Shown: piece by piece, positions 985 through 48,306 of the stretch | Numbering within the stretch: position 1 is the stretch's first letter | Layout of the letters: each line of letters opens with the position of its first letter | Source of the DNA: a bacterium | GTDB taxonomy: Bacteria; Synergistota; GBS-1 | Direction of reading: 5' to 3' | DNA length: 64,000 nucleotides | Assembly: GCA_030153785.1 (NCBI GenBank) | Contig: JASKLF010000001.1 | Span: 216,896-280,895 of the forward strand | The notes under the pieces: generated by a model | The model's database searches: none | Told to the model about the DNA's origin: nothing | What the model saw: only the letters and a program-made list of their open reading frames with translations | Translations under genes and position numbers: made by a program

Positions 985-999
985 TCCCCTACCCCCTTC

Positions 1000-2730: not shown

Positions 2731-2749
2731 TCATACTCCCCCCTCAAGT

Positions 2750-3796: not shown

Positions 3797-3816
3797 CCCC
3801 CTTTTTTAAAGAGCGT

Positions 3817-4736: not shown

Positions 4737-4901
4737 CTTGATCTCTCACTTATATTGTAATTGCTAAGACTATGTAAAGTCAATGAGTTTTATGCCAAAA
4801 AATAAAAGTTACTTCCATATAGTGGAAGACAAAAGAGGAGAAAAAACAATGATGAGCCTTTACCTAAGGAGGTTCCTTTAAAAATTATTTGCTGTGGAAG
4901 G

Positions 4902-10345: not shown

Positions 10346-10347
10346 AC

Positions 10348-11145: not shown

Positions 11146-11232
11146 CTTACCATCTCCTTTCTCAATCTCTATTATGATTATAGCAGTTATTGTGCTATAC
11201 TTCTAAAAAGAAAAGGGAAAGGAGGAGGAACC

Positions 11233-12815: not shown

Positions 12816-12849
12816 AAATACTACCCATAATTAGTGCTATAATAGCTTT

Positions 12850-13974: not shown

Positions 13975-13977
13975 GAC

Positions 13978-14505: not shown

Positions 14506-14507
14506 AA

Positions 14508-15951: not shown

Positions 15952-17860
15952 CCGCCCTTGCAAACATAGCGAGAACAAAGGCAATAACAAAGGTTAAAAG
16001 AAAAACAAAAAGAGACCTCCTTATACCTATCTCTTTTATCAAAGCCCCCAAGGTAGATATGCACGGAAAGTAGAATATAATAAAAACTGTAAACACGAGA
16101 ATTTGGGAAGGAAGTAAAACCGATAAATCCCCACCTAAAGCCTGCCTGAGCATTAATAAAGATAGCTCTTTCCTCAAAAGGCCAAATATGAGGGTAACGC
16201 CCGCTGAAACGGGAAGACCAAGGGAACGGGTGAGAAAACTAAAGATGGAATTTATTTTATCCTCAAAATCATAGTAAGTAATTAATGATAAAAGAATACT
16301 TCCTCCTATTAGAAGAGGCCACGCTACTATTAAAAACTCTCTAAGCCTAAGCCACGTTTTCGCCAAAAGACCCTTTAAGGTAGGCAAGCGATACGGCGGG
16401 ACCTCCATTATAAGCCCCTCACAATATCCGGGAAGGAGCTTAGAAAAGGCCCATCCTAAAATGCCAACTATTACAAGGTTTAAAATATAAAGAAAAGAGA
16501 CCCAACCTCCACCAAGGTAAAAGCCAACAAGTCCCATTATTATTGTCATCCTAGCAGCACACGGAATTAAAACGGTTAATATGGAAGCAATAAACCGATC
16601 ACGCGAGCTCTCGAGTATCCTTATAGCCATCACGCCCGGGACATTGCAACCGTATCCCAGAATGAGGGGCAATATTGCCTTTCCATGAAGGCCTATCCTA
16701 TGCATCAATGCATCTACAAGAAACGCTATCCTTGGAAGATACCCAAGATCTTCAAGAAAAGACAAGCCCAATAGAAAGGGGAAGAGATATGGTAGAACAA
16801 TAGCAAGTCCCCCAGTAAAACCATCATATATCCCCTTAATTATGTACGAAGCCAAGCCCTCCGAACCCCAAAAAGGCGAAATTTTCTCGTAAAAACTCTC
16901 AAAGAAAGCGAGAAGAGGACCTTCTAATAAAGAACCGAACTTAAAAATAAAGGAGAAGAAAAGGTACAAGGTCAAAACAAGCAAAGGATAACCTATATAG
17001 GGATTAAGAACGAAGGTATCTATCTTCTCCCTTATGGTCTCCTTTCCTTTCTTAACCTTAGCAACTTGCTCAAACACATTGAAGGCAAGAGCGTGCCGTT
17101 GAGAAGCTATTATTTCATCAGGTTCCCTACCATATTCCTTTAATATCCTCTCCCTCGCCTGAGCTACAAAATCCGTGAGCTCAGGGGCATATCTATAAAC
17201 TATAGAGCTTATCTCTTGGTCTCCTTCTAAAAGTTTAAGGGCAAGAAACCTCTTTGGGAATCTACCCACTATATTAACGTTACTTAACCTATTTTCCAGG
17301 CCTTCAATTTCTCTTTCAATAGCCCCACAAAATTTAAGGGGAGAGGCTTTAACCCCTTCCTCGATAGCCATAAGGGCGGTTTCGAAAAGTTCTTTTAATC
17401 CCCTGCCCCTGTTAGCAACCGTTGCAACCACGGGAATACCTAAAATCGTCGAAAGTTTTTCCACTTCTATGATTACTCCCTTTTCCGCAGCTTCATCCAT
17501 CATGTTAAGACAGAGTATCATCGGAAGCTCCAACTCCATAAGCTCAATGGTAAACTCAAGGCTCCTTGAAAGGAGTGAAGCATCAAGAACATTTATATAA
17601 AGATCAGCCCCCGTTTTAAGCATAAATTTCCGCGCTTCCCTTTCGGCTTCATCAACAGGAGAAAGAGAGTAAATACCTGGAAGATCCACCAGCTCAAAAA
17701 CTCTGTTACCGAAGCGAATATCGCTCACCGTATACGAAACTGTGGTCCCCGGGAAATTGGAGGCGATGGACTTATAGCCTGCCACCTGATTAAATATGGT
17801 GCTCTTACCACAGTTAGGTTGTCCAACGAGAGCAATTCTTACTCTATCTTTTCCACCCAA
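15929..17860 (-). CDS. feoB: ferrous iron transporter FeoB
   Basis: It has an N-terminal G-domain (VGQPNCGKSTIFN) followed by polytopic membrane domains. It is 643 aa. Confidence 0.9.
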   Translation of the reverse strand: MGGKDRVRIALVGQPNCGKSTIFNQVAGYKSIASNFPGTTVSYTVSDIRFGNRVFELVDLPGIYSLSPVDEAEREARKFMLKTGADLYINVLDASLLSRSLEFTIELMELELPMILCLNMMDEAAEKGVIIEVEKLSTILGIPVVATVANRGRGLKELFETALMAIEEGVKASPLKFCGAIEREIEGLENRLSNVNIVGRFPKRFLALKLLEGDQEISSIVYRYAPELTDFVAQARERILKEYGREPDEIIASQRHALAFNVFEQVAKVKKGKETIREKIDTFVLNPYIGYPLLVLTLYLFFSFIFKFGSLLEGPLLAFFESFYEKISPFWGSEGLASYIIKGIYDGFTGGLAIVLPYLFPFLLGLSFLEDLGYLPRIAFLVDALMHRIGLHGKAILPLILGYGCNVPGVMAIRILESSRDRFIASILTVLIPCAARMTIIMGLVGFYLGGGWVSFLYILNLVIVGILGWAFSKLLPGYCEGLIMEVPPYRLPTLKGLLAKTWLRLREFLIVAWPLLIGGSILLSLITYYDFEDKINSIFSFLTRSLGLPVSAGVTLIFGLLRKELSLLMLRQALGGDLSVLLPSQILVFTVFIIFYFPCISTLGALIKEIGIRRSLFVFLLTFVIAFVLAMFARAVSLLFLV

Positions 17861-18078
17861 ATTCTCGATGCCACCCCTCTTCCAAGAGCGATTCGCGCAT
17901 TATTTACCTCTACCATCAAAGGACAACCTAAAACAGCGCTTTTTGCAATCTTTACCTCAACTCCAGGTATTATCCCTAATTGAACAAGCCTCATCCTAAA
18001 GCCTTTTCCACCAACAATGTCTACTACTTTCCCTTTTTCCCCTTCGTCTAATTTATCTAAAGGGAGAACCTCCCTCAT
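17839..18078 (-). CDS. feoA: FeoA family protein
   Basis: 79 aa SH3-like FeoA (GEKGKVVDIVGGKGFRMRLVQLGIIPG) immediately upstream of feoB. Confidence 0.8.
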   Translation of the reverse strand: MREVLPLDKLDEGEKGKVVDIVGGKGFRMRLVQLGIIPGVEVKIAKSAVLGCPLMVEVNNARIALGRGVASRIWVEKIE

Positions 18079-18140
18079 TTACATCCCACCTTTATCCTTT
18101 ATCAGCTTAAGTATTATACTCCATTTTAAACCATAAAAAA

Positions 18141-18173
18141 AGCGCCCCCTTAAGAATTAGGGGGCGCTTTTTC
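18141..18173. terminator. rho-independent terminator (bidirectional-capable) downstream of uxuA / upstream of feoA
   Basis: AGCGCCCCC-ttaagaatta-GGGGGCGCT forms a 9-bp GC stem. It is flanked by an A-run (5') and TTTTT (3'). Confidence 0.6.
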
Positions 18174-18189
18174 TCAAAGAAATTTATAA

Positions 18190-19272
18190 TCAACAGTATC
18201 TTTCCTTCATCTTACCTATAGCTTCCCAAAGGCCCAACAAATAAACAGCACCTAAAGCTCTATCGTAAAGGCCATATCCTGGGCGCCCCTTCTCCCCCCA
18301 TATCATCCTGCCATGATCAGGTCTTATATACCCCTCGTAATTTATATCATGAAAGGCTTTCATAACTTCAAACATATCATGAGAGCCGCAGAAGGAAGGA
18401 TGAGCCGTTTCGTAAAACTTACCGCGATTTTCTATTTTAAGGTTTCTCACATGCGCAAAGTGAATTCTCCCCATTTTACCAAAATATCTTATCATCTCCG
18501 GAATATTATTGTCAGGATTAGCACCAAGGGACCCCATACACAGAGTAATGCCGTTATAGGGGCTATCAACTGCCCTTAAGAAACGCTCTATGTTCTCCCT
18601 GTTGGTTACTATTCTCGGAAGGCCAAATATGCTCCATGGGGGATCATCAGGATGAATTGCAAGCTTAACATCGCACTCTTCACATGTGGGGATAACGGCC
18701 TTTAAAAAGTAAACGAAATTATCAAAGAGTTTAGCTTCGTCAACTTCCTTGTAAAGCTCAAAGGTCTCCTCAAGCTTGGCAAGCCTGTCCCACTCCCAAC
18801 CTGGAAGAACGAGGCCATGAGAACCTTCTTTAACTCGCTTAATTAACTCCTGAGGCGTGATGTTCTCTATCAAGCTATGATCGTATTCCATCGTCTCCGA
18901 GCCATCCGGCAATTTTCTATTAAGTTCCGTTCTCATCCAGTCAAACACGGGCATAAAGTTGTAGCAGATCACCTTAACCCCAACCTTAGATAGGTTTCTA
19001 ATCGTTTCTATGTAGTTTTCTATGTATCTCTCCCGCGTGGGAAGACCCAATTTGATATCCTCATGAACATTCACGCTCTCAATAACCTCAAGAGTTAAGC
19101 CAGCCTTTTCAACCACCTCTTTAAGATGCTTCACCTTTTCAAGCGGCCAAACTTCTCCGACAGGCACATCAAATAAAGCTCCAACAACACCTACAACACC
19201 CGGTATCTGCCTTATTTGCTCCAAAGTCACCGGGTCATTGTTCTCTCCATACCATCTAAAAACCATCTTCAT
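18190..19272 (-). CDS. uxuA: mannonate dehydratase
   Basis: 360 aa with a UxuA N-terminus (MKMVFRWYGENNDPVTLEQIRQIPGV) and the xylose-isomerase-like TIM barrel. Confidence 0.9.
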   Translation of the reverse strand: MKMVFRWYGENNDPVTLEQIRQIPGVVGVVGALFDVPVGEVWPLEKVKHLKEVVEKAGLTLEVIESVNVHEDIKLGLPTRERYIENYIETIRNLSKVGVKVICYNFMPVFDWMRTELNRKLPDGSETMEYDHSLIENITPQELIKRVKEGSHGLVLPGWEWDRLAKLEETFELYKEVDEAKLFDNFVYFLKAVIPTCEECDVKLAIHPDDPPWSIFGLPRIVTNRENIERFLRAVDSPYNGITLCMGSLGANPDNNIPEMIRYFGKMGRIHFAHVRNLKIENRGKFYETAHPSFCGSHDMFEVMKAFHDINYEGYIRPDHGRMIWGEKGRPGYGLYDRALGAVYLLGLWEAIGKMKERYC

Positions 19273-19277
19273 GCTCT

Positions 19278-20894
19278 TTATCCCCCCTCTACGACCTCCT
19301 TAAGAGTTGCTCTTACAGCCCCTGGACCCTTTATCATCTTGCTAAAGTATGCTTCTATCCTCTCTCCCAAGCCTACCTCATAAAGATTAACCCTAAATAG
19401 CTGAGGGCTTGAAAGGATCGGTTTTAACGCATCTCCAACGGAATCGGGCTCACCGAACTTAACTGAAGCAAGATATCCTCTTAAAGAGTCCAACAAAGGA
19501 TCTGGGCTAAGTTCCATTCTCTCTCCTTTATCGTCTATTCCCAGTAAGTATCTACACCAACCAGCTATGACCAAAGGAATATACCTTAAATCCCCTGGAG
19601 CGAGGCCCGGTTTCTCATAATAAGATTTGATGGTCTCCCCAAACCTTATCGGGACCTTTTGAGATGTATCCGTGGCGATCCTCTGTGGAGTATCGGGCAT
19701 GTATGGATTGGGAAGTCTCTCTTCGATAACCTCCTCTAAAAACTTCCTCGGGCTTATTATCTCGGGATCAACAACAACCCTCATGCCCTCCTCCCCAACG
19801 CCTCGCACAAGCTTCACTAAAAGCGGGTCTCTCATTTCCTCCGCAATAGTTTTATACCCCAAAAGACAGCCAAAGACGGCCAACGCTGTATGAAGAGGAT
19901 TGAGGCAAGCGGTGACCTTCATCCTCTCAGATTTTTCAACCTTCTCTCTATCGGTCAAAAACAAATTGGTATCGCTTCCCTCAAAGGGCGGTCTTCCGTT
20001 AGGAAAGCTATCTTCTATAACGAGATATTGAGCCCTCTCCATGTTAACAAAGGGAGCTATAAAGGTCTTCTTCTCGGTCACAACTATATCCATGCCTGAT
20101 AGACCAATCTCCTCAAGATGTTTTTTAACCATCTCTGAAGGCCTCGGAACTATCTTATCTATCATGCTCCATGGAAAGGCAACATCGTTCTCAAGATAAT
20201 CTAAAAACTCATCTTCAACCAAAAACCTCTTTACCCATTCCTTAACTATCCTTCTCACCGAAGAATACAATTTTTCACCATTTCTCGAAAAGTTATCCAA
20301 GCTAAGCATAGCTATTTGTAACCTTCCAGCCTTAAAACGCTCATAAAGAAGTGAAGCAACCTTGCCCATAGAGCTCTTAGGAAAAGTAGGCCCCTTCTCC
20401 ATATCCTCTAATACCACAGGGTAAAGCCTTCCCTCTTGATCTTCAAGGTTATACCCCTTTTCCGTAATGGTTAAAGATGCAAGCTGTAAAGACGAACTTT
20501 TAAATATTTCCTTAATCTCGTCCCAATCCTTGAAATTAGGGTCTCCCTTAAGGCCAACCGCTATGCTTCCTATTACCCTCTTGTCCAAGTTTCCATCGCT
20601 ATTTATGGTGACCGCCAAACACAGATTGTCGTAGGGATAATAAATTTTGTCTATTATCTCATAATCAAACAACTCAACCGCTATTATTCCCGTTTCTTCC
20701 CTCCCATTTTCTATCATATTTTGGGATATGCCTGCGATATAACCTCTGAAAATATTACCAGCTCCAAAGTGAACCCACCTTGGAGACTTTAAAGTTATCT
20801 CTCTTACTCTCTCTATCTCAAATTCGGGTAATCTAATTCCCACCTTAATCCAGGCTTCCCTATCTCTTAACCCCTTTAAACTGAGGGACAGCAC
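19278..20894 (-). CDS. uxuB: mannitol dehydrogenase family oxidoreductase (probable fructuronate reductase UxuB)
   Basis: 538 aa. It has an N-terminal Rossmann motif (HFGAGNIFRGYIAG), lies between kdgK and uxuA, and has the length of the long-chain mannitol DH family. Confidence 0.75.
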   Translation of the reverse strand: MLSLSLKGLRDREAWIKVGIRLPEFEIERVREITLKSPRWVHFGAGNIFRGYIAGISQNMIENGREETGIIAVELFDYEIIDKIYYPYDNLCLAVTINSDGNLDKRVIGSIAVGLKGDPNFKDWDEIKEIFKSSSLQLASLTITEKGYNLEDQEGRLYPVVLEDMEKGPTFPKSSMGKVASLLYERFKAGRLQIAMLSLDNFSRNGEKLYSSVRRIVKEWVKRFLVEDEFLDYLENDVAFPWSMIDKIVPRPSEMVKKHLEEIGLSGMDIVVTEKKTFIAPFVNMERAQYLVIEDSFPNGRPPFEGSDTNLFLTDREKVEKSERMKVTACLNPLHTALAVFGCLLGYKTIAEEMRDPLLVKLVRGVGEEGMRVVVDPEIISPRKFLEEVIEERLPNPYMPDTPQRIATDTSQKVPIRFGETIKSYYEKPGLAPGDLRYIPLVIAGWCRYLLGIDDKGERMELSPDPLLDSLRGYLASVKFGEPDSVGDALKPILSSPQLFRVNLYEVGLGERIEAYFSKMIKGPGAVRATLKEVVEGG

Positions 20895-20905
20895 CTTTTT
20901 TCACC

Positions 20906-21928
20906 TTACCTCTCGACTCGGCCAGAAGTAGCTCCTCCTGCAAGCTTTTCCACTTCATCCTCGCTTAAACAGGAAAAGTCACCAGGAATTGTATGCTTCA
21001 AGCAAGAGGCGGCACCAGCGAACTCGGCTTTCCTTTGAGAGTCATAACCTTTAAGGGTAGAGTATATTAAGCCTCCAGCGAAGCAGTCACCAGCCCCTAC
21101 CCTGTCAACTATGTAATGGATTTCGTATCTGTTAGAGAAATAGGGCTTCCCGTTTTCAAATACCATCACCGACCAGTAATTAACGGTGGCGGATAAGCTC
21201 TCTCTTAAAGTTATTCCTATAATCTCGAAGTTATATTTATTGCTTATCTTATCAGCAACATCAACATAAGCTTCTCTTATAATCTTACCTGTTTTGAGAT
21301 CCAAGCCCTCTATATGGATGCCTAAAACCTTCTCTATATCCTCCTCATTCGCAATAAGAACATCCACATAATCCATAAAAGGTAACATAACCCTTTGAGC
21401 CTCCTCCTTGCTCCAAAGCTTAGCCCTAAAGTTCAAGTCACAGCTAATCTTTACTCCCTTACTTTTAGCAACCTCAAGGGCATCTTTGACTATGAGCGGT
21501 AACTCCTTTCCCAAAGGAGGAGTTATCCCGGAAAAGTGAAACCACTTAGCCCCATCGAGTATCTTCTCCCAATCAAAGTCCTCCCTTTTAGCAAGCGATA
21601 TAGCCGAACCCGCTCTATCGTAGAGGACCTTACTTGCCCTTTGAGAGGCACCAATCTCTAAGAAGTAAATACCAATCCTGTTTCCTCCCCTTGCAATATA
21701 ATCCGTCCTAACTCCATATTTCCTCAAATGTCCAATAGCTGCATCCCCCAAGGGATTTTTAGGAAGCTTAGTAACAAAAAAGGCATCAAGCCCCATCTGC
21801 GCAAGGAAGGCAGCTACGTTAGCCTCAGCCCCACCGTATGTAACATCAAAGCTACTCGCTTGAAACAGTCTTTCATGATTTGGAGGACTCAACCTTAGCA
21901 TTATCTCACCAAAAGTCACTACCTTCAT
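20906..21928 (-). CDS. kdgK: 2-dehydro-3-deoxygluconokinase (PfkB family)
   Basis: The PfkB motif (FGEIMLRLSP), the C-terminal DRVGAGDCFAGGLIY motif, and the hexuronate operon context all fit. Confidence 0.85.
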   Translation of the reverse strand: MKVVTFGEIMLRLSPPNHERLFQASSFDVTYGGAEANVAAFLAQMGLDAFFVTKLPKNPLGDAAIGHLRKYGVRTDYIARGGNRIGIYFLEIGASQRASKVLYDRAGSAISLAKREDFDWEKILDGAKWFHFSGITPPLGKELPLIVKDALEVAKSKGVKISCDLNFRAKLWSKEEAQRVMLPFMDYVDVLIANEEDIEKVLGIHIEGLDLKTGKIIREAYVDVADKISNKYNFEIIGITLRESLSATVNYWSVMVFENGKPYFSNRYEIHYIVDRVGAGDCFAGGLIYSTLKGYDSQRKAEFAGAASCLKHTIPGDFSCLSEDEVEKLAGGATSGRVER

Positions 21929-31279: not shown

Positions 31280-32146
31280 ATGTACAAAGGCGTGGTATTT
31301 GTCGGTGGTGGCAAAGGAGCCTTAAGCCTCCTTAAACAGTTCAGAAAGCTAAACTTAAACATATCCGGGATAATGGATGTTAGGCCAGACGCTCCAGCGA
31401 TACTGGAGGCAAAAAAATACGGGATATTCACAACCACAAAATTAGATGAGCTTCTATCCCGTCCGCACGATCTAATAATAGAAGTAACGGGGAAAGATGA
31501 AGTGGTGGCAGAGATTGAAAGGAAGAAGCCTCCTCATGCGAGTCTCATTAGGGCGAAGGATGCAAAATTCATATGGGATATAATAGAACGCGAGGAAAAT
31601 GAAAAAGCGCTTTTAATAGAGCAGATAAAGCTTTTAAGAGAAACCAAAGAAAACATAGAGAGGTCCTCCCCGATGGTCGTAAAGCTTTCAGAGACTTTAA
31701 CCGAGGGAACGGAGTTAGTCAAAGGCACTTCGGATTTTTTAGCAGAAAACATAGAAAGGCTCACTAACGAAGCTGAAAAACTTAACGATATAATCAAATC
31801 CATCCAGAAAATAGCGAAACAAACAAAGATGATTGGGCTTAACGCTTCAATCGAAGCAGCAAGAGCAGGCGAGCTTGGGAAAGGATTCGCAGTCGTCGCA
31901 GCTGAGGTAAGCAAACTCGCCGACCAAAGTTCGAGCTCCGCGGGAGAAATATCTGACACCTTGAGTCATTTGAAGGAAAGCATCTTATCTCTTAAAGGTC
32001 CTGTAGAAGATATAAAAGAGGCTATAGAACGCTGTAACGCGGAGGCCGAAGAACTTAAATCCACAGCCGACGTTTTAAAAGGGGCCATAGAAAAACTCCT
32101 CGATGTGGAAGAAAAGCTTTTGAGCTTGACCTCAGATAAAGCATAG
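31280..32146 (+). CDS. soluble protein with N-terminal Rossmann-like domain fused to methyl-accepting chemotaxis (MCP) signalling domain
   Basis: The N-terminus has [13 protein letters not shown]. The C-terminus has the MCP signalling signature ([34 protein letters not shown]). There is no TM segment or HAMP domain. Confidence 0.7.
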
Positions 32147-32166: not shown

Positions 32167-32244
32167 CGGGGCGTAGCGCAGACTGGTTAGCGCGCCTGCT
32201 TCGGGAGCAGGAGGCCACCGGTTCGAGTCCGGTCGCCCCGACCA
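32167..32244 (+). tRNA. tRNA-Pro (anticodon CGG)
   Basis: The tRNA folds by hand into a cloverleaf. The acceptor stem is CGGGGCG/CGCCCCG. It has a D-arm, an anticodon stem CCTGC/GCAGG with loop TTCGGGA, a T-arm GTTCGAGTC, and an encoded CCA. Confidence 0.85.
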
Positions 32245-32251: not shown

Positions 32252-33007
32252 TTAATAGCAATCTACATAAATAGTGCTCCCTTGAACCGAAACCACCTGA
32301 ATGGGTAAACCCGCCACTTTCAAGCTCTTAGCCACATCGTTAACGTCGCCCGAGTACAGAAACTCTATGATTGCTTGGCCCCCACCATAAGAGGTTATCT
32401 TAACATTTCGAGCACCAGGAAAACCACGAATCTTCTCATAAATACTGTTAACGAGACCATAATCGGAAACGCCCCTTAAGATGACCCGAGCCATGCCTGA
32501 AAACTCTCCAGGATGCTGAGCCCCTATTAAAAAGGAGGCGGCCTTGGAAGCTACATCCATCAAGGCTTTGCGCTGAGCCTCCTCACCAGTATAACCAACC
32601 GCCTTAGAGGAGAATGCCTGGCTTAACAGAAAGCGTGCATCTTTAGTCCTATACGCTTGAATTGAAAGGGAGGCCGTAGCCGTGTATAAGTTAAACTCGT
32701 TTAATCGGGGTTCTTCTAAACGAGTCTTCCCTCTTACGAAGTAAGCAACATTGTAAGATCTTCCCAATCTCATTATGGCCTCAGCGTTACCCTGAAGAGC
32801 TAAAATGGCTGCACGACTTTTCTTTATCTTCTCAAGCTGATTTTGCTCAACCACCTTGTAACCTGCATTTATGAGAGACTCCATTACCTTCGCTTCAGCA
32901 AAAGGATTATCGAATATTACAACGACCCTTCCATCATTAGGAAGATAGGCAAAGGCGTATGAAAGGACTGCGAAAAGCAGAACCGCAGTCATTAAAGCTC
33001 TTTTCAT
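32252..33007 (-). CDS. secreted hypothetical protein (CsgG/LPP20-like periplasmic fold pattern)
   Basis: It has a signal peptide (MKRALMTAVLLFAVLSYAFA). The pattern VVVIFDNPF...GYKVVEQNQLEKI...AYFVRG resembles the CsgG N-domain. It is the last gene of the secreted-protein operon, and its stop lies 8 nt from tRNA-Pro. Confidence 0.5.
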   Translation of the reverse strand: MKRALMTAVLLFAVLSYAFAYLPNDGRVVVIFDNPFAEAKVMESLINAGYKVVEQNQLEKIKKSRAAILALQGNAEAIMRLGRSYNVAYFVRGKTRLEEPRLNEFNLYTATASLSIQAYRTKDARFLLSQAFSSKAVGYTGEEAQRKALMDVASKAASFLIGAQHPGEFSGMARVILRGVSDYGLVNSIYEKIRGFPGARNVKITSYGGGQAIIEFLYSGDVNDVAKSLKVAGLPIQVVSVQGSTIYVDCY

Positions 33008-34436
33008 TGCAAGGCACCTACCTCCACAAGCTTTTTCCTTATAGGCTCGTAGTTAGGGTTGATGGCTATTCCTTTCTTCCACCATTTTATCGCTTTAGCT
33101 TTGTTGCCTATCTCGTAATATACCCTCCCTAACCAGTAACAAGCTACATAGTTACCATTATAAGCATTAAAGGCAAGTTCGTAATTCTTAATAGCAAGCG
33201 AATACCTCTTTCTAGAATAGTTATAGTACCCAGCCTTGTGTAGCCTTATTAGGTTATTCTTCAAACTCTGACTTATAGGCCAAAGCTTTATCACTTCTAT
33301 AGTTGTCCCCGTGTTAAGGATAGAGCTCTCCCCAGCTGGTGGAGGTGGAGGTGGAGGCGGAGGTGGTGGAGGTGGCGATTGGGCAGCCCCGCTCTGTGAA
33401 GGTGGCGGAGAAGAAGGCTGTATATTTCCAGATGGACTGGGAGGAGCAGTAGAAATAGCTTCACCACCAGCCAATAACCTCGGTCTTATCTTTATCTTTT
33501 CTAGGGCAGATTCATCAAAGATAGGTTCAACCTTGTCTCCCCTCATAACTCCCTTTCCCTTGATTACCCTCGCTATAGAATACTGCGGATATACCTCCTC
33601 CAATTGGAGAATCGCTATGTAATATTTTTCAACTCCCAAAATCTCCCCCTTAAGCCCATAGATAGGCTCACCCTCCACATAAACCGCATAATAGCTACCA
33701 ACCGTTGCACCCGCATTTGCCTCCCCAGCATCGATGTATACCCTGTTTCCCTCATCTTTTATTACATGGTATACCATTTTGCCTCTGCGCACCCTTATAG
33801 AGGCTATCTTCTTAACAATCTTCTCTATACACTGGCGCGTCGCTGCAGCAAGTATACCTTCCTCCTCGCTCTGGCCATATAAAACTCCTCCGAAAGCTAT
33901 TCCACCAGCACTGTGGGTAGCCTTACCCGTTTCCTTAGCAACTAAAAGTATTTCTCCGGTTTCAACGCTAACCATTCTCACATCTAAAGTAACATTAGCT
34001 TCCGCCTCACCGAGAGCTATTCCACCCAATTGAGGAATGGGAAGGACCCCGCCCTTCTTCTTTAAAGTAAATTGAGTAATGCTACCTGTGATTATAGCTT
34101 CAACGCCCAAAAGTTTACCCAACTGAGCAGCCGTAGAGGCGTCAACGAGCCCCGATTGAGCTAAGTTATGCTCCCTCGCTATGGCCTCCAATCGACTCCT
34201 CTCCACTATTGAAAACATTTGCGTTTTCCATAGCTCAGTTATAAACAGTCCGTTATCGCCCTTCTAACAGCTTCAACCTGAGAGCTTTCTGGACCCGTAA
34301 CATTATTACTAAAGTCCACAACAGCCACCCTCATTCTATCGGAAGCTCCGAAGGCAGTAGACTCTGACACTACCATGGTCAAAAGAAGAAGAATCACAAA
34401 CCAAACCCTCTTCATATCTCCTCTACCCCTCCTCAC
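33004..34436 (-). pseudogene. CsgG-family (curli-type secretion channel-like) lipoprotein fused to Pro-rich linker and C-terminal TPR domain, interrupted by a frameshift
   Basis: Fragment 1 (34239..34436, 65 aa) has a signal peptide plus RVAVVDFSNNVTG...AVRRAITDCL. Fragment 2 (33004..34218, 404 aa) reads FSIVERSRLEAIAREHNLAQSGLVD...LGVEAIITGSITQF...DVRMVSVETGEILL, which is the CsgG motif series. The two fragments are in different frames, about 20 nt apart. The C-terminus has 13 consecutive Pro and TPR-like repeats. Confidence 0.55.
33338..33376. repeat. (GGN)13 triplet repeat encoding a 13-residue polyproline tract on the minus strand
   Basis: The plus strand reads ggtggaggtggaggtggaggcggaggtggtggaggtggc. 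The translation shows PPPPPPPPPPPPP. Confidence 0.8.
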
Positions 34437-34873
34437 TGAATTTCCACACTATACTCTAAAAGATCCTTCAAAGGTATCCTCAACGTTATTCTATAAAACT
34501 TACCATCAAAACTTTCTTCATCAATATAGCCTCCGCCAACTACTCCCTTTATCCGAACACTTTTATATCCCTTGGGAATGGGATAATTTAGCTGATATAG
34601 AAGAAAAAGTGCATTTCTCTGTGCCGTCAAAATAGCCGCTCTTCTGGCGAGAAGTTTAGCCTGTGCTTCAGTATCATACTTTTCCGGAATCATACCTATG
34701 CCTTTTACTACTGCAACCTTTTCCTCCCAGTCTATGCTACCCCAAGGAAAGCCCTGAAGGGCAACATTATTCTCGTTAAACTTCCTCACCAGCTCAAGAT
34801 CCACATTGTAAGGAATAGCATAGACCGGAAAGGAAAACAATAACAACACCAATAAAAGGGTTAAACCCCTCAA
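34433..34873 (-). CDS. LPP20-family (FlgP-like) secreted lipoprotein-like protein
   Basis: It has a signal peptide (MRGLTLLLVLLLFSFPVYA) and the LPP20 signature (AQAKLLARRAAILTAQRNALFLL). Its stop/start overlaps its neighbours by 4 nt. Confidence 0.6.
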   Translation of the reverse strand: MRGLTLLLVLLLFSFPVYAIPYNVDLELVRKFNENNVALQGFPWGSIDWEEKVAVVKGIGMIPEKYDTEAQAKLLARRAAILTAQRNALFLLYQLNYPIPKGYKSVRIKGVVGGGYIDEESFDGKFYRITLRIPLKDLLEYSVEIQ

Positions 34874-36021
34874 ATACCTCCTCCCCCTACTCTCGGCTTA
34901 CAAACAATTCTATTTGCAGTGAAATCCACAATATCAAGACCCAATTGCTCAAGCCTAATTGCCAAGTCCTCAGCGTTGCCTTCTATATTAACATCCATTA
35001 CCAGATTTCCGTTAGTAAAGCTCCTTTGATATACCCCTACCACCCCTTTAAATTTTTCCACTTCTTTTTTAATCCTTCGCGCTTGTGAAAAGCTCACTCC
35101 TTCCACCCTAACCTGAATCGTCCTTCCCGCAATTCCCCTACCCGTTTGACCAAGCATGGCATAGGCAACTTCGTAAACAAGCTTTCGCGCCGATTGAGAG
35201 GCTGCCTCCTTCAAGGCCTTCATCGCTGCATCATCAACGCTCAAGCCCACCTTTCTTACCGATGGAATAGCAACACCCAGAATCTTGCCCGTTTGGGTTA
35301 TTATGGCTTTAACGCTAAGCTGTGCTTGAACTCCATAAAGCCTCTGACCTGAGACAACCTGAGAAGTATAAGGAACGGCTATAGCCTTACCGGTAATAAT
35401 TACATCGGCATCGTGTCTTCTCGCAAGCTCTATTAACTTGGAGGTATCTCCTGTAATAGCGGCTTCAAGGGCTTCCCTTTTCCTATTGGCATCTATCTGA
35501 CCTGGATCAACTATATGGTACCCCGCATTCTGGAAAACGCTTAATATGGTAGATTCACTAACAGCAAGAAAGGGAGTTTTACCATCTATATCCTCGTATA
35601 TGCAAACCATTAAAACCGGATTACCCAACGTATCTATAACTACAGGTCCTAAAACATCATTTAGCTTCGTTAAGGCAACGGTTGCCTTCATTTTAATCTT
35701 TATCATTCCGTCTTCTTCCCGCTTACTCAATATCTTGTAATCCGTAATTAAGCCTTTCGATTGAGCCATAACCCTATCTCTTATAACCTGAAAATTTTCC
35801 ATCTCCGTTATGCCTTGAATCAGCACGCCTAACCCTTTCTCTATCGCATTCCTAAAGGCATCTCTTTTAGCCTCTTCAAGAGCCCTTGCCTTATCTCCCC
35901 CTATAATTGCACCATAACCTTCTACCTCAACAGTTACAGGTCCCTTACTTTGTCCCCATACAGGAGAAATGGTAACCATTAAAGTTAATGTAACTATTAG
36001 GAAAGCAAATGTTCTTCTCAT
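34870..36021 (-). CDS. secreted multi-domain protein, FlgT-like architecture (LPP20-like N-domain + CsgG/TolB-N-like middle domain + C-domain)
   Basis: Signal peptide. The N-domain reads GDKARALEEAKRDAFRNAIEKGLG. The middle domain reads ADVIITGKAIAVPY...VQAQLSVKAIITQTGKILG. It is 383 aa. Confidence 0.5.
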   Translation of the reverse strand: MRRTFAFLIVTLTLMVTISPVWGQSKGPVTVEVEGYGAIIGGDKARALEEAKRDAFRNAIEKGLGVLIQGITEMENFQVIRDRVMAQSKGLITDYKILSKREEDGMIKIKMKATVALTKLNDVLGPVVIDTLGNPVLMVCIYEDIDGKTPFLAVSESTILSVFQNAGYHIVDPGQIDANRKREALEAAITGDTSKLIELARRHDADVIITGKAIAVPYTSQVVSGQRLYGVQAQLSVKAIITQTGKILGVAIPSVRKVGLSVDDAAMKALKEAASQSARKLVYEVAYAMLGQTGRGIAGRTIQVRVEGVSFSQARRIKKEVEKFKGVVGVYQRSFTNGNLVMDVNIEGNAEDLAIRLEQLGLDIVDFTANRIVCKPRVGGGGI

Positions 36022-36026
36022 TTACC

Positions 36027-36869
36027 TCACCTTTTAACCACTATAACCCTACATGCAGATCTAAAATCGTAATTATTATTCCTTATAGCATCAGCATCTC
36101 TTTTAGATATAACTACGTCAACATTATTTGGAGAAACCGTCTTTACCGCCTTAGCCACAAGAGGTTTAGGACCTACCCTTGGATCGCCCTTTGCCCATTC
36201 TATGTTTGTCTGATACGCAGCCATACCGCTTGACATAAATCTCTCCCTGTCCACATGTTTGATGGAGTAAACTTCCCTTCCGTTAGGATCTAAAATTCTG
36301 AATGTAGTTGCAGGAATTAAAGGAACGTTTCTCGCATCAAGAATAAGGCCTGTGTAATTCGCCTTCGGTGGGGGTGGAGAAACCTTCTTGGGCTTAATTC
36401 CCATAGTGTCAGCCACAAGCTTTCTCACCTTCTTAAGGTATATTCTTCCCCAAACGGTGTAAATTTCTCCATCCCACTTTTCTCTGACAATTTCGACGCC
36501 CTTAACCCAACCTTCTACCTCACTCCTCACCACATCGCTTTGGACCATAAAGTTCTCCATCAACGTTTGGCTATCTATTCTCACTCCCTTTATAGTTTCA
36601 AGCAAGTTTCTTTGAAGGTCTAAAATAGCGCCTCTTCTAGCGAGAAGCTTTCCCTGAGCCTTGTTAACTGCCGTAGTAGGAGGAACAGCAGAACCTGAAG
36701 CCTCAACGTAATCTTCAGTCCAATTTATCGTTCCATGGGCAGTTTCTTCCACAACAGCCCCAATCTGAGCTCCTACCTGAACCTGCGTTCCAGAAGATTG
36801 AGCAAAAACCCCAAAGGCAATAAGCCCAATACTTAAGACAACCAATAACCACCCCACGAAACCCCTCAT
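36027..36869 (-). CDS. LPP20/FlgP-like secreted protein with Pro-rich linker and C-terminal domain
   Basis: It has a signal peptide (…GVFAQSSG) and the LPP20 signature (AVNKAQGKLLARRGAILDLQRNLLETIKG). It also has a PPPP linker and GLILDARNVPLIP. It is the first gene of the operon. Confidence 0.55.
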   Translation of the reverse strand: MRGFVGWLLVVLSIGLIAFGVFAQSSGTQVQVGAQIGAVVEETAHGTINWTEDYVEASGSAVPPTTAVNKAQGKLLARRGAILDLQRNLLETIKGVRIDSQTLMENFMVQSDVVRSEVEGWVKGVEIVREKWDGEIYTVWGRIYLKKVRKLVADTMGIKPKKVSPPPPKANYTGLILDARNVPLIPATTFRILDPNGREVYSIKHVDRERFMSSGMAAYQTNIEWAKGDPRVGPKPLVAKAVKTVSPNNVDVVISKRDADAIRNNNYDFRSACRVIVVKR

Positions 36870-36878
36870 CTGGATCTC

Positions 36879-36912
36879 CTCCCCTCAAAATTATTAAGTA
36901 TATTTTATCACA
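36879..36912 (-). promoter_or_regulatory. candidate promoter (extended -10 TGTGATAAAAT) for the secreted-protein operon, immediately after the tatD stop
   Basis: The minus strand reads TGAATGTGATAAAATATACTTAATAATTTTGAGGGGAGGAGATCCAG-ATG. That is a TGn-extended -10, followed by a strong SD 6 nt before the start. Confidence 0.35.
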
Positions 36913-36913
36913 T

Positions 36914-42893: not shown

Positions 42894-43250
42894 ATGGCAG
42901 AACAATATCACGAGCCCGTAGATGAGCTCACGTCAAAGGATAGGGACTTTACAAGAGCACTTGTAAGTTTGAAAGAGGAAATCGAAGCAATAATGTGGTA
43001 TCAACAGAGAGCTTCCGCCACAAAAGACCAAGCCATAAGGGAGGTTCTTGAGCACAACAGAGATGAGGAAATGGAACACGCAGCCATGCTTCTTGAATGG
43101 CTTAGAAGGAATATGCCCGGTTGGGATAAAGCATTGAGAACCTACCTCTTCACCAGTGAACCGCTAACCCAGATAGAGGAAGAAGCTATGGGCGGAGAAG
43201 AATCCTCAAGCGGGGGAGATCTTGGCTTGAGAAAGATAAAAAGGGGGTGA
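42894..43250 (+). CDS. encapsulated ferritin-like protein (EncFtn/Flp) cargo with C-terminal encapsulin targeting peptide
   Basis: It has the ferritin-like four-helix motif (EEIEAIMWYQQRA...EHNRDEEMEHAAMLLEWLRR) and a C-terminal GGDLGLRKIKRG targeting peptide. It lies directly upstream of the shell gene. Confidence 0.85.
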   Translation: MAEQYHEPVDELTSKDRDFTRALVSLKEEIEAIMWYQQRASATKDQAIREVLEHNRDEEMEHAAMLLEWLRRNMPGWDKALRTYLFTSEPLTQIEEEAMGGEESSSGGDLGLRKIKRG

Positions 43251-43256: not shown

Positions 43257-44054
43257 ATGGATTTCCTAAGAAGGAACATATCTCCTCTTACCGCTAAACA
43301 GTGGGAAGAAATAGATAAAAGAGCCAAGGAAGTATTCTCAACGCAATTACATGGAAGAGCAGTGGTAGATGTTGTTGGACCTTTCGGTTGGGAATATGCT
43401 GCCCATCCCACAGGAGAGATAGAGCTACTTTCAAAGGAAGATGACGCTGTAAAATTCGGATTGAGAAAGGCTTTGCCTTTGGTAGAGCTAAAAAGCTACT
43501 TTTATCTTGACCTTAATGAGCTCGACAAGCTGGAGAGAGGACAGCCTGCTATAGACCTTTCGGCATTAGAGGAAGCAGTAAGAAACGTGGCAGTTTTTGA
43601 AGATGGAGCGATATTCGAAGGCTGTGAGCAATCTGGAATAAAAGGCTTCTTAGCTTACAAAGAAGAAAGAAGCATCCCTTCCTCCACCACAGAGGAAGAA
43701 TTCTTGGAAAGTCTCTACAAAGCGATGGCCAACTTTAGCCTCAACGGCATTAGCGGTCCCTATACCCTTGTTATAAACATAGACAAGTGGGTAGAAATTG
43801 TAAAGGCAAGTAAGCACTATCCTATACATAAGAAGGTAGAAGATATATTGAAAGGCGGTAAAGTCCTACTTACACCACGCATAAGCGACGGCCTTTTGGT
43901 TTCCGAAAGGGGCGGAGATTTCGAACTTATATTAGGTCAAGACCTATCTATAGGCTACGAAGCTACCGAAGGCTCAAAGGTAAAGCTGTTCATCACTGAA
44001 ACCTTCACCTTCCGAATAATTACCCCTGAAGCTCTTATCCACCTGAAGTTTTAA
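43257..44054 (+). CDS. family 1 encapsulin nanocompartment shell protein (HK97 fold)
   Basis: 265 aa. It reads [27 protein letters not shown]...[14 protein letters not shown]...[18 protein letters not shown]...ITETFTFRI...EALIHLKF. This closely resembles the T. maritima encapsulin. Confidence 0.9.
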
Positions 44055-46454: not shown

Positions 46455-48306
46455 TTAAAATACAAACTTATTAATTAAATCCATAAGCTTGACAGAAGCC
46501 TCCTTTAGAGAAAGCCCTATTTCCCCTACACTTTTAACAAGCCCAGCTTGCCTATCTAAAAGCTCTTTTACCTTTCCCACATCTTTAGTTATGTCAGCTA
46601 CAGCCTGTGATACCGTACTCATAGGCTCGCTCAACGACTTCAAAGAAGAGCTCTGTCCTTTCGCAATTTCAGCAAGCTCCTCTCCAAGACTAACAACCTC
46701 TTCCACATTACTAAGAATCTTAGACAATTTTTGAGTGGCGAAGGCCGATTGATCAAAAGCTCTCTTTACAACCCCCTCCAGTACATCAATAGCTACACCT
46801 ACTCTTTGGGTTTCGCGCTCTATACTTAGCAAAACGGGAGCCACGCTCGATGTTAAAGACTTGCTCCTTTCGGCAAGCTTCTTTATCTCCTCAGCTACTA
46901 CAGCAAAACCTTTTCCCTTATCTTCTGCCCGCGCTGCCTCAATAGCCGCATTCAAAGCCAAAAGGCTTGTCTGCTCAGCGATGGAGTTTATCATTTCTAT
47001 AACCTTTCCAACATCTTTAACCCTATCAAGTAGTTCCCTCCCCGCCCCCTTTGTGGCACCCGTTTCATCCCATATTTCACAAACCACATCATCAACTATA
47101 CACAAAGCCTCTTTACCCTCCTTAGCCGCCATCTTTATATCTCCCGTCTTCGAAGTTAGCTTTACCGAAAGATTATAAACATTCTCAGCATCTAAAACCA
47201 GTTCCTCAAGCATCGAGTTTACCTTTAAAAGGAAGTCCCTAACTTTCTGACCAAAATCATCCATGCTTTCCATTTTTCCAAAAACTATCCTGCTTTTGTC
47301 TTCCAAAACTTCAGACATGCTCAAAAGTTCGCTACTTTCCTATAGACTTAGCAAGCGCGCTTATGGGAGAAGTTACGGAGGAAGTCACAACAAACAAGCT
47401 AATCCCTACAAAGAAAAGGATCAAAGGGAAAATTCCATTAAGGGTTATCATCAGTTTAGTAATTGGAACGAATAGTTGATCCTTATAAATAGAAAGACCG
47501 AAAGACCAACCCTTTGCTACCTTTATAGGATGGAAAAAGAGATATACTTCCTCCTTAGATGACCAATACTTGCCAAAACCTTTCTCTCCTTTTATCATCT
47601 TAACACCTAAACTTTCCAATCCCCTAAAATTAAACCCCTTCGGATTTAAAATGTTCAATCTGAGTGACATGTCCTCTTGAGTATGAGCTATCACAAGACC
47701 TGTAGAATCAACTATCCATGCAAAACCCTTGCCCCCCATGCTTATACCTCTCACGTAATCGTTAAGTCTTTCGATTAACACGTTAGCTCCGAAAACCCCT
47801 ATGAGCTTTCCGCTTTCATCTTTAACAGGAACAGCAATAACACAAACAGGATTCCCCGTTAAGGCAGAAACTACCACATCACTTATAACCGCCTGTTCTC
47901 CATTTAAAACTATCCTCTTAAAATAATCGTGGTTAGATAAATCCCTCGATATGCCCATGCTCGTAAACGCCATTCCATCCGGATAGGCTATGAAGAAGGC
48001 TTCGTAAAAATCCCTTTTAAACATAAAGCTCCGCAAACTCCTCTCCTTTAAAGCGCTAACAACTTCTTCGCTTTCAGATAGAGCTTTTACCTCCTTAAGC
48101 AACCCCTCGAACCACTCGCTGACCTTTTCAGCAGACTTAGCTGTTATTTCGGAAGCAACGTTCTCAACAAATGAAACCATATTCTCTTCCATTCGATATT
48201 TGAGGAAAAAGGCTCCAACCCCTATTATCACCAAAGTCGGGAGTAAAACATAGGCCAAAAATTTATATCTAATAGAGCTCAACATGTTTTCCTCTCCCCT
48301 CTCCAC
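46455..48306 (-). pseudogene. methyl-accepting chemotaxis protein (TM-Cache-TM-HAMP-MCP signalling domain) split by a +1 frameshift inside the HAMP domain
   Basis: The N-terminal fragment (47332..48306) has two TM segments and a periplasmic Cache-like domain and ends ...[11 protein letters not shown]. The C-terminal fragment (46455..47324) carries [34 protein letters not shown]. Removing one T at about 47335 (GGAAAG-T-AGCGAA) restores a continuous HAMP: ...[21 protein letters not shown].... Confidence 0.65.

Follow-up and report, generated by a model that had tools for sequence, protein, structure and literature searches.

Among the closest described systems, the Vibrio H-ring (PDB 3W1E, 8Z5N, 9YDS) consists of outer-membrane-associated concentric rings of FlgT26, FlgP58 and FlgO58. 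In the Campylobacter jejuni basal disk (FlgP/FlgQ, with PflA/PflB; PDB 9HMF), FlgP is a small lipoprotein and the TPR component, PflA/PflB, is a separate inner-membrane-anchored spoke. The lipid-anchored CsgG (PDB 4UV3, 6SI7) forms the curli pore of type VIII secretion. Related single proteins are Treponema pallidum Tp0624 (PDB 5JIR), proposed to be a peptidoglycan/envelope scaffold, the lipidated Leptospira LipL46 (NCBIfam NF033164), placed by published work in the outer membrane or at the surface, and Helicobacter pylori Lpp20 (HP1456, clustered with HP1454), which binds FlgP and FapH.

The locus described here is a five-gene operon, g1 to g5, on the minus strand (36869-32252) of a window of 64,000 nucleotides, the whole stretch of DNA analysed. 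Its domain composition (FlgP/LPP20-like, FlgT-like, CsgG and TPR) bears out the likeness to H-ring and basal-disk proteins noted in the initial annotation. The operon is best read as coding for a stoichiometric assembly of rings or a disk under the outer membrane, which, with a probability of about 0.4, would be a self-contained, flagellum-independent envelope scaffold or portal. Literature searches returned no characterised system of this composition, as had been anticipated, and database names are uninformative: g1, g2, g3 and g5, like the proteins homologous to them, are 'hypothetical', except for one UniRef label of DUF5666, and g4 homologs are named solely TPR or CsgG-family proteins.

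Organization of the operon

The features of the operon are listed in Table 1. Consecutive minus-strand reading frames for g1, g2, g3 and g5 are present as initially described, with the CsgG/Pro-linker/TPR gene between g3 and g5. The number of genes, however, is five and not six, the CsgG-TPR gene (g4) being split by a 1-nt deletion. The 4-nt overlaps said to join all the frames are found at g2/g3 (TTGA) and g4/g5 (ATGA), whereas g1 and g2 are separated by a 5-nt spacer, and g3 and g4 overlap only if the GTG start is used; g4 orthologs begin at an ATG 21 nt downstream of this GTG.

Table 1. Features of the operon and its upstream spacer (window coordinates)
Feature	Position	Strand	Description
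tatD stop-g1 start spacer	36870..36913	-	44 nt; TGATAAAAT and GGGGAGGAG
g1	36027..36869	-	280 aa; signal peptide, FlgP/Lpp20-type SHS2 and Tp0624-D2-like domain
g2	34870..36021	-	383 aa; FlgT-like and LipL46-like, signal peptide
g3	34433..34873	-	146 aa; signal peptide, single SHS2 domain; TTG start
g4 N-terminal fragment	34239..34436	-	65 aa from GTG; ends at premature TAA
g4 frameshift site	34247..34249	-	one A fewer than in every other strain and ortholog
g4 C-terminal ORF	33004..34218	-	404 aa, no signal peptide
g5	32252..33007	-	251 aa; signal peptide, CsgG/TolB-N-like and ferredoxin-like C-domain

Both elements noted earlier in the tatD-g1 spacer, the extended -10-like string TGATAAAAT and the Shine-Dalgarno sequence GGGGAGGAG, are visible there, but a consensus promoter scan found no sigma-70-type -35/-10 pair upstream of g1 on the minus strand. 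A dedicated g1 promoter in the spacer is therefore possible, and transcription by read-through from metG-tatD is equally so.

The N-termini of g1, g2, g3, the g4 N-terminal fragment and g5 resemble signal peptides, with one or two basic residues, small-x-small sites and 12-aa hydropathy maxima of 2.7-3.0. The 404-aa g4 frame, which begins MFSIVERS, lacks such a peptide, so that the earlier statement of a signal peptide on every frame needs this one correction. None of the five products has a lipobox, and all five are predicted to be Sec-exported and none to be lipidated.

SHS2 proteins and the hairpin insert

With family profiles, the PDB sequence that best matches all three SHS2 proteins is C. 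jejuni FlgP (9hmf_C), at 1.2e-17 for g1, 1.6e-8 for g2 and 1.5e-7 for g3. The SHS2 domain of g1 (~36420-36737) bears a 25-residue hairpin insert and is accompanied by a Tp0624-D2-like domain (~36030-36362). This protein also matches the Tp0624 D1-D2 tandem, Lpp20 and HP1454, best of all Tp0624, which has an extra C-terminal OmpA-like domain absent from g1. The g3 domain aligns with the g1 N-domain (hhalign probability 98.9, E 1.4e-17) and has a shorter insert of ~16 residues. The designation of LPP20-type proteins holds at the profile or fold level only, since the Pfam LPP20 cutoff is missed (g1, 13.9 bits against 25.9; g3, no match); the peptide motifs and the 13-proline run quoted for the operon were all located.

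The 25-residue insert lies between the SHS2 helix and strand 2, is retained in g1 and g2 (lengths from alignments), and equals the ring-polymerising insert of FlgP in length and position. Ring formation in the SHS2/FlgP family has been linked to exactly this insert (PMC12222027). Lpp20 of H. pylori, in contrast, has no ring-forming insert, and neither a CsgG-like protein nor a TPR partner is encoded in its cluster. The insert (residues 97-119) has low pLDDT in the monomer model, which would fit an element ordered only in the oligomer. Between strains, the SNPs in g1 and g2 comprise seven synonymous and two conservative changes, indicating purifying selection on both genes.

FlgT-like proteins and internal paralogy

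The 383-aa g2 comprises an SHS2 domain (~35662-35934), a CsgG/TolB-N-like alpha/beta domain (~35152-35649) and a C-domain (34888-35136) for which the ferredoxin-fold matches are weak. The FlgT-like layout proposed for it is confirmed by Pfam FlgT_N, which 12 of 19 g2 homologs match (best 7e-12), and by FlgP at the profile level. All 19 family members also match NCBIfam LipL46, the best at 2.9e-26 but below the cutoff; the window protein is collinear with LipL46 for nearly its whole length (residues 30-333 against positions 40-355 of 413), though remote from it (48 bits, cutoff 400).

Protein g5 has a CsgG/TolB-N-like domain (~32513-32935) and a ferredoxin-like C-domain (32255-32494) and is a paralog of g2 residues 134-375 (hhalign against the g2 family, probability 99.7, E 3.8e-26); it also aligns with the g4 CsgG domain (92.3, 5.5e-7). 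SHS2 thus recurs in g1, g2 and g3, the CsgG/TolB-N-type alpha/beta domain in g2, g4 and g5, and the ferredoxin-like domain in g2 and g5, while the Tp0624-D2-type domain is confined to g1 and the FlgT_C-type barrel, Pro-rich linker and TPR to g4.

The blocks shared with the Vibrio H-ring are the SHS2 ring former, the three-domain FlgT-type protein and the CsgG/TolB-N-type alpha/beta domain. The module differs from the H-ring in having no flagellar gene linkage and no lipid anchors, in its shuffled domains (N+M with a ferredoxin-like C-domain in g2; CsgG, FlgT_C-like barrel and TPR in g4), in its extra paralogs, g1 with the Tp0624-D2 domain and g5, and in that the window proteins miss the family Pfam and NCBIfam thresholds. 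With the basal disk it shares the length of the hairpin insert (g1, g2) and a TPR component. Flagellar linkage is again absent, however, the SHS2 domains are fused to other domains and not lipidated, and the TPR is fused to a CsgG-like protein.

Judged by such homologies, the module proteins may be ring formers. On the preferred reading of a ring or disk scaffold, the assembly plan would be that of the H-ring and basal disk, encoded away from flagellar genes. Proteins g1, g2 and g3 would polymerise through the hairpin insert into concentric rings, with the FlgT-like g2 and g5 as inner layers. The CsgG-like g4 would oligomerise and fix the assembly to the outer membrane by two hairpin segments, in place of the lipids that anchor FlgP, FlgO and CsgG, and the TPR arm of g4, tethered by the long Pro-rich linker, would extend to a partner in the periplasm.

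The CsgG-TPR gene and its frameshifts

The deletion in g4 lies near 34248, where all orthologs have GAC-ATG-TTT and the window has GAC-TGT-TTA-TAA; the ortholog alignment reads RRAITDMFITELW, and the strain alignment agrees that one A is missing. The N-terminal fragment, whose true start is likely the ATG at 34415 (orthologs start MK...), covers the signal peptide as well as the first strand of the CsgG domain. The remainder of that domain (to ~33778) falls in the 404-aa frame, together with an FlgT_C-like beta-barrel (~33520-33771), the Pro-rich linker (~33271-33483; the 13-proline run at 33337-33375) and TPR repeats (~33010-33267). All modules of the CsgG-linker-TPR fusion described initially are therefore present, but not as an intact gene in the window. 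The repaired protein matches Pfam CsgG at 1.2e-33 (116.7 bits, HMM positions 7-205 of 210) and TPR_2 at 2.4e-7, and FlgT_C is matched at 1.1e-7 in the g4 homolog P0016.

Two further independent frameshifts occur in g4 of near-identical strains, making three in the species, so that any assembly made here would be a partial one without g4. If g4 is the membrane anchor, its repeated loss in one species is hard to reconcile with the four kept genes. GDH and one MCP gene are likewise frameshifted in the window.

The same gene bears on an alternative in which g4 is a CsgG-type oligomeric outer-membrane secretion pore, and g1, g2, g3 and g5 are periplasmic gating, adaptor or chaperone factors like CsgE and CsgF. 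The clear CsgG match, whose coverage spans both segments forming the CsgG transmembrane hairpins, agrees with such a pore, as do long strands in the AF2 model (108-126, 134-151, 157-174), Foldseek matches to CsgG structures at ~6e-8, and the near-constant presence of the CsgG-like TPR gene in the module. The pore is nevertheless improbable. With the CsgG equivalog model the score is 20.7 bits, far short of the cutoff of 505; hairpin 2 is ~9 residues shorter than that of CsgG, with low model confidence there; g4 has neither lipobox nor lipid anchor, and adds the barrel, linker and TPR to the CsgG domain. No csgA or csgB partner accompanies it, and no curlin repeat, CsgE, CsgF or candidate substrate gene was found in any context examined. 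Moreover, g4 was killed by three independent frameshifts while the supposed accessories are under purifying selection. Since a substrate or CsgE/F-like partner is lacking, the best Foldseek match of g4 is FlgT (3w1e, 7.3e-15 over 305 columns) and g4 is repeatedly inactivated, the secretion-channel half of the earlier secretion-or-scaffold proposal is the weaker one, and the ring/scaffold half the stronger.

Conservation and genomic context

The source organism and all close homologs belong to Synergistota, and not to the Thermotogae-like genome initially supposed; a toga-associated system was rejected on this ground. The module is found in 40+ Synergistota species at 29-82% protein identity, with varying flanks but with order and tight or overlapping junctions kept. 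In species-representative genomes whose flanks are long enough, g1 is present in 34/37, g3 in 35/40, g5 in 28/33 and the CsgG-like gene in 23/28. Related g1/g2/g5/CsgG-like clusters also occur on metagenome contigs of unknown taxonomy.

As the initial annotation had stated, the called genes covering the window include no flagellar, curli or pilus Pfam family, and no gene of these three kinds lies within ~10 kb of the module in nine different contexts with Pfam tables. That annotation had also made its proposal depend on CsgG and LPP20 homology, on signal peptides and on orthologous clusters lying outside flagellar loci; CsgG and FlgP/FlgT homology was recovered, signal peptides are present, and 0/9 contexts are embedded in flagellar loci. 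Apart from the two larger clusters, which are antisense to module genes, each neighbour family outside the module is shared by seven loci at most; the scanned neighbours are transporter components.

The absence of flagellar neighbours is an argument against a module that forms the Synergistota flagellar outer-membrane disk or H-ring around the distal rod or bushing, with g1 and g3 corresponding to FlgP, g2 to FlgT, g4 and g5 to FlgO/FlgT, and the TPR arm to PflA/PflB/MotX. Such a module could be sited off the core flagellar operons, an arrangement that Campylobacter shows for flgP/flgQ and pflA/pflB. FlgP as the best PDB sequence match of g1, g2 and g3, FlgT as the best g4 fold, and the representation of all three H-ring protein types are in its favour. 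An MCP gene directly downstream of the operon, with the frameshifted one elsewhere in the window, indicates that the organism is probably motile, which counts against a flagellum-independent scaffold. The named module-bearing genera Fretibacterium, Aminivibrio, Aminiphilus, Aminithiophilus and Dethiosulfovibrio are motile by lateral flagella. All FlgP/FlgT family members with a known cellular role are, moreover, flagellar-motor accessories, which again counts against independence, as does the binding of FlgP and FapH by H. pylori Lpp20. Outer-membrane disks have arisen repeatedly from these same parts (PMC5758724), and periodontitis metatranscriptome papers name both flagellar functions and Fretibacterium fastidiosum.

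A flagellar disk is nonetheless somewhat unlikely. A sigma-28 -10 motif upstream of g1 occurs in 2/35 loci against a background of 6.5%, i.e. without enrichment, and in some genomes two paralogous modules directly adjoin each other (loci L025 and L031). The g2 family numbers 12,879 clusters (50% identity) at E<=1e-3 and 1,482 clusters at E<=1e-30; it exceeds every flagellar accessory family by far and takes in Leptospira LipL46-type proteins. Furthermore, the module proteins are not lipidated, unlike FlgP and FlgO, g2 has no FlgT_C barrel, and the window proteins fall below the thresholds of flagellar families.

It is quite unlikely that the genes serve no common machine, i.e. that separate common-fold periplasmic proteins, such as LpoB-like regulators of peptidoglycan synthases or Tol-Pal-like tethers, are co-transcribed in an operon now decaying. 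All 19 g4-family members match LpoB weakly, tol-pal YbgF is matched faintly by the window g4 (E 0.0091) and by 4/19 members, the best match of g1 is the proposed scaffold Tp0624, and the g4 pseudogene is accompanied by the frameshifted GDH and MCP genes. Against this stand the retention of the same tightly coupled genes, in the same order, over 29-82% protein identity in 40+ species, the purifying selection on g1 and g2, and the mutual paralogy of the module proteins, typical of layered homo- or hetero-oligomers.

Layout and host of the operon

The module consists of five genes, g1 to g5, on the minus strand (see the table), and not of six ORFs that all begin with signal peptides, as the initial annotation had it. 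Sec-type signal peptides are predicted at the N-termini of g1, g2, g3, the N-terminal fragment of g4, and g5, whereas the 404-aa ORF, which is the remainder of g4, has none. No lipobox is found in any of the operon's proteins in the window. A spacer of 5 nt separates g1 from g2, while g2 and g3 overlap by TTGA and g4 and g5 by ATGA. The overlap of g3 with g4 requires a GTG start; the orthologs use an ATG, which lies 21 nt further downstream.

An NCBI entry that matches the g2 protein at 100% identity bears the name 'MAG: hypothetical protein [Synergistetes bacterium]', and the nearest intact g4 (79% identity) is from a Synergistetes MAG. The scan of one genome per species yielded 43 loci, 42 of them in Synergistota, with Aminiphilus, Aminivibrio, Fretibacterium fastidiosum, Thermovirgaceae, Dethiosulfovibrio and many MAGs among the carriers. 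The single exception (L031) is labelled a Phycisphaerales MAG yet has a Synergistota-type arrangement, and is probably a mis-binned contig. Since the close homologs are all from Synergistota, as are 42 of the 43 loci, the Thermotogae or 'toga' origin assumed at first is ruled out.

Features of the window and of related loci (positions in L007, L025, L031 and L049 are those of the fetched locus)
Feature	Position	Strand	Size	Remarks
g1	36869-36027	minus	280 aa	
g2	36021-34870	minus	383 aa	
g3	34873-34433	minus	146 aa	
g4, N-terminal piece	34436-34239	minus	65 aa	ORF ending at TAA
g4, remainder	34218-33004	minus	404 aa	ORF in a different frame
13-proline run in g4	33337-33375			
g5	33007-32252	minus	251 aa	
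g4 frameshift allele 1	34248			-A, GAC[A]TG; window and L001
g4 frameshift allele 2	33559 (window-equivalent)			-G, GGG to GG; L002 and L004
g4 frameshift allele 3	33266 (window-equivalent)			+A, GAG[A]TT; L003 and L005
MCP-signal-domain protein	31280-32146	plus	288 aa	
tRNA-Pro(CGG)	32167-32244	plus		
Poly-Gly ORF	33311-33622	plus	103 aa	no gene
EncFtn-like cargo	42894-43250	plus		
Linocin_M18 shell	43257-44054	plus		
Split MCP gene	46455-48306	minus		dCache ORF 47332-48306; MCPsignal ORF 46455-47324
Glutamate dehydrogenase gene	52455-53595	plus		frameshift near 53200; overlapping ORFs of 262 aa and 133 aa
L007, SHS2-domain protein	1155-2816	minus	553 aa	
L007, second CsgG protein	10001-11974	plus	657 aa	two TPR blocks
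L025, paralogous modules	9064-21118			
L031, paralogous modules	75-6651			
L049, Fretibacterium g1 ortholog	8170-9828		~542 aa	

Domains and internal paralogy

With single sequences, Pfam confirmed g4 alone, and the remaining genes were settled by family profiles. These profiles, Pfam on g4 and the fold match of g4 bear out the domain calls of the initial annotation in essence. When the frameshift near 34248 is mended, the repaired g4 matches CsgG (PF03783) with 116.7 bits against a cutoff of 20.8 (1.2e-33; HMM positions 7-205 of 210) and TPR_2 with 2.4e-7. The AF2 model of an intact g4 ortholog (pLDDT 68) is matched best by Vibrio FlgT (3w1e, 7.3e-15 over 305 columns) and by the LPHT-ring FlgT (2.3e-14); CsgG structures (~6e-8) and then GNA1162 rank lower. 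A g4 homolog at 33% identity matches Pfam FlgT_C (1.1e-7). A further sequence, P0024, is a lone CsgG-like gene and was not informative.

The LPP20 call stands with respect to the fold, as the SHS2 fold of Lpp20 is present when the LPP20 lipoprotein family is compared, but not with respect to the Pfam gathering score: LPP20 (PF02169) reaches 13.9 bits on g1 against a cutoff of 25.9, does not match g3, and matches no family member. With the g1 profile, C. jejuni FlgP (9hmf_C) is found at 1.2e-17 and further FlgP entries at 3e-4 to 3.5e-6, and the g2 and g3 profiles match FlgP at 1.6e-8 and 1.5e-7, respectively. According to Drobnic et al. (PMC12222027), ring formation in the FlgP family is associated with an insert that follows the SHS2 helix and precedes strand 2 and that is absent from Lpp20. 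A segment of 25 residues, the same length as that of FlgP and ungapped in the FlgP alignments, is found in g1 (VRIDSQTLMENFMVQSDVVRSEVEG) and g2 (VLIQGITEMENFQVIRDRVMAQSKG), and is shortened to ~16 residues in g3. Its pLDDT is below 50 in the monomer model, as may be expected if the insert becomes ordered only in the oligomer.

In addition to the SHS2 domain, g1 has a second domain, and the pair adopts the D1-D2 tandem fold of Treponema pallidum Tp0624. The OmpA-like C-terminal peptidoglycan-binding domain of Tp0624 is missing, in that g1 gives no Pfam match to it and ends after the D2-like domain. The Fretibacterium orthologs of g1 (P0158 and ~50 similar proteins) have a coiled-coil-like insert of ~250 residues with a weak match to Pfam RNase_Y_N, which could be a spacer.

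Pfam FlgT_N is matched by 12 of 19 g2 homologs (best 7e-12), and NCBIfam LipL46 (NF033164) by all 19, collinearly and over the full length, far under the cutoff. The g2 of the window scores 48.3 bits with this equivalog against a cutoff of 400, and the best family member has an E value of 2.9e-26. These matches point to a relationship of g2 with LipL46 that is remote but full-length.

In profile-profile comparisons g3 is related to the N-domain of g1 (probability 98.9), the latter to the N-domain of g2 (97.7), g5 to residues 134-375 of g2 (99.7), and the N-domain of g5 to the CsgG domain of g4 (92.3). The genes of the operon form a paralogous set assembled from a few modules. The C-domain common to g2 and g5 has weak ferredoxin-fold matches only, PDB profile searches with it and with g5 gave nothing but weak ferredoxin-fold noise, and when the g1, g3 and g5 families were scanned against Pfam there was no significant match. 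It is quite improbable that the genes encode unrelated periplasmic proteins. Judging by signal peptides, junctions and profiles, the products are exported, non-lipidated, paralogous and tightly co-encoded.

Conservation and gene neighbourhoods

Conservation was counted with local HMM searches against the ORFs of loci of about 20 kb, in species-representative genomes with sufficient flank. On this basis, g1 is found upstream of g2 in 34 of 37 genomes and g3 follows g2 in 35 of 40; g5 is present in 28/33 and a CsgG-like gene in 23/28. The order of the window, g1-g2-g3-g4-g5, occurs in 6 loci, and the order g1-g2-g3-g5-g4-g4 in 13, in which the CsgG-like genes still include the TPR fusion and there is an additional Kelch-like gene.

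In some genomes two modules lie back to back (L025, L031); the paralogous modules in these two loci differ in gene order and lie on opposite strands. Genomes of the Aminiphilus type (locus L007) have two more genes beside the module, one for a divergently encoded protein with SHS2 domains and one for a second CsgG protein.

The flanks of the module vary among lineages, and clustering of the neighbourhoods showed nothing conserved outside the module, two of the seeming clusters being artefacts of antisense ORFs. No flagellar, curli or pilus Pfam families are found in the nine contexts with Pfam tables (within ~10 kb for the flagellar families) or in the rest of the 64-kb window, in agreement with the first reading of the sequence. 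Upstream of g1, the sigma-28 -10 core CCGATA is present at 2 of 35 loci, compared with a background of 6.5%, and so is not enriched.

The g2 profile retrieves 12,879 clusters of 50% identity at E<=1e-3 and 1,482 at E<=1e-30, and nearly all of the best 150 are full-length matches. Four contigs that encode proteins of this kind carry g2 with a CsgG/FlgT_C protein (L056), g2-g1-g5-CsgG (L057), g1-g2-(3 x SHS2)...g5-CsgG-TPR (L058), and g1-g2 (L059). Because of the cluster numbers, the LipL46 link and neighbourhoods unlike those of Synergistota, we infer from sequence that the module family is widespread beyond this phylum.

Inactivation of g4 in one species

At the break in g4 all orthologs read ...RRAITDMFITELWKTQMFSIVERSRL..., and five near-identical contigs have one extra A at the 34248 site relative to the window; therefore, the window carries a 1-nt deletion near 34248. 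Six contigs of one species, with 99.8-100% identity, derive from three sources, and each source has its own single frameshift in g4. All five contigs in which the three sites are covered have a broken g4 (L006 stops before the second site), while g4 is intact in other species. The strain comparison over 21 kb contains four indels, three of which are inside the 1.4 kb of g4 (P ~0.001 under a uniform spread), and no SNP in g4; g1 and g2 together have 7 synonymous and 2 conservative SNPs.

Sequencing error is ruled out by the occurrence of each allele in at least two independent assemblies and by the clustering of the indels. Classical phase variation is unlikely, as the frameshift sites are not long repeats. 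Two other genes of the window are also disrupted, namely those for glutamate dehydrogenase, broken after ...LELDVD in the protein, and for an MCP that is split just after the second TM helix. The window genome therefore tolerates pseudogenes, yet this does not explain three independent frameshifts in g4. From the three separate inactivations and the SNP pattern of g1 and g2, it follows that this species can do without g4 or selects against it (as a costly pore or a phage receptor, for instance), while the partner genes are maintained. The three inactivations thus constitute a natural experiment.

Comparison with known systems

The repaired g4 passes the Pfam gathering score of CsgG, the channel of the curli system. 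In CsgG, a 36-strand barrel is formed by two transmembrane beta-hairpins. Both segments are present in g4; compared with CsgG, the first candidate hairpin is equally long (~22 aa) and the second ~9 aa shorter. In the AF2 monomer of the g4 ortholog, long strands occupy residues 108-126, 134-151 and 157-174, and pLDDT is below 50 at 175-184. However, curli CsgG is a lipoprotein, whereas g4 has a cleavage-type site AFG/AS without a lipobox, which is found in only 1 of 19 orthologs. The csgE and csgF partners and the csgA and csgB substrates are absent from the Pfam tables of the window and the orthologous loci, and with the NCBIfam CsgG equivalog (NF011731) g4 reaches 20.7 bits, the cutoff being 505. 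Judged by equivalog score, lipobox and partner genes, the module does not belong to the curli systems. A true CsgG-type secretion system is accordingly unlikely, given also that g4 is the very gene lost in the window's species.

The module would work like an H-ring or basal disk, and the operon proteins are homologous to proteins that build concentric rings under the outer membrane. The FlgP-type SHS2 domain with its hairpin insert is shared, in the shortened form in g3. FlgT, however, combines FlgT_N with FlgT_M and FlgT_C in one protein, whereas g2 has N-like and M-like domains followed by the ferredoxin-like C-domain, and the FlgT-type pair of M domain and C-barrel sits in g4. Vibrio FlgP and FlgO are lipid-anchored (Cys16 and Cys18), unlike the operon proteins. 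Of an H-ring or basal disk one would expect proximity to flagellar genes or membership of their regulon, and neither is seen for the module in the nine contexts or by the CCGATA count. The module is thus set apart from these structures by lipidation, FlgT architecture and flagellar linkage. A flagellar outer disk is a less likely alternative to the reading favoured below. In its favour, the characterised relatives are all motor parts, even Lpp20 binds FlgP and FapH, MCP genes are present, and the named genera that carry the module are motile.

Outside the flagellum, the module is closest in structure to Tp0624 D1-D2, LipL46 and Lpp20, all functionally unexplained. The literature searched, both for the domain combination and for 'FlgT-like/FlgP-like' systems, contained nothing relevant, in line with the initial statement that no characterised system of this composition is known in this lineage.

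Proposed assembly and its significance

As flagellar linkage is absent, the family is large and linked to LipL46, and the module is duplicated in some genomes, we favour a stand-alone envelope scaffold or portal, with a probability of roughly 0.4. In such an assembly g1, g2 and g3 would polymerise through their hairpins, and g2 and g5 would contribute FlgT-like layers. The g4 protein would oligomerise, its CsgG hairpins anchoring the assembly and its TPR arm extended on the Pro-rich tether.

A wider proposal is speculative and, taken as a whole, rather doubtful. The operon would be the Synergistota member of a very widespread, flagellum-independent family of rings and portals under the outer membrane, with g1-, g2-, g5- and CsgG-like proteins as building blocks, to which LipL46 and Tp0624 D1-D2 would belong and from which FlgT, FlgP and FlgO of the H-ring and basal disk would have been recruited. 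In diderms such as Synergistota, a CsgG-like barrel would replace the lipid anchors.

A real assembly of this kind would amount to a conserved envelope structure in a diderm phylum that has received little study and counts the oral pathobiont Fretibacterium among its members. It would also provide the first functional context for three proteins of pathogens, Leptospira LipL46, Tp0624 D1-D2 and Helicobacter Lpp20. The module also bears on the evolution of flagellar outer-membrane disks. If it is stand-alone, it would be a candidate ancestor of the recruited H-ring and basal disk; if it is flagellar, it would represent a new motor architecture in Synergistota, of which, to our knowledge, no flagellar motor has been imaged so far.

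Other features of the window

The tRNA-Pro(CGG) gene and the operon are convergent, with 7 nt between the tRNA gene and the stop of g5, and the 3' stem of the tRNA, followed by a T-run, scores as terminator-like. The gene for the MCP-signal-domain protein, which has no Pfam sensor domain, lies directly downstream on the opposite strand to the operon, an adjacency that is not kept in other lineages. The poly-Gly ORF is the antisense of the Pro-rich linker of g4. The window also contains an encapsulin pair of EncFtn-like cargo and Linocin_M18 shell, followed by a peptidase M32 gene.
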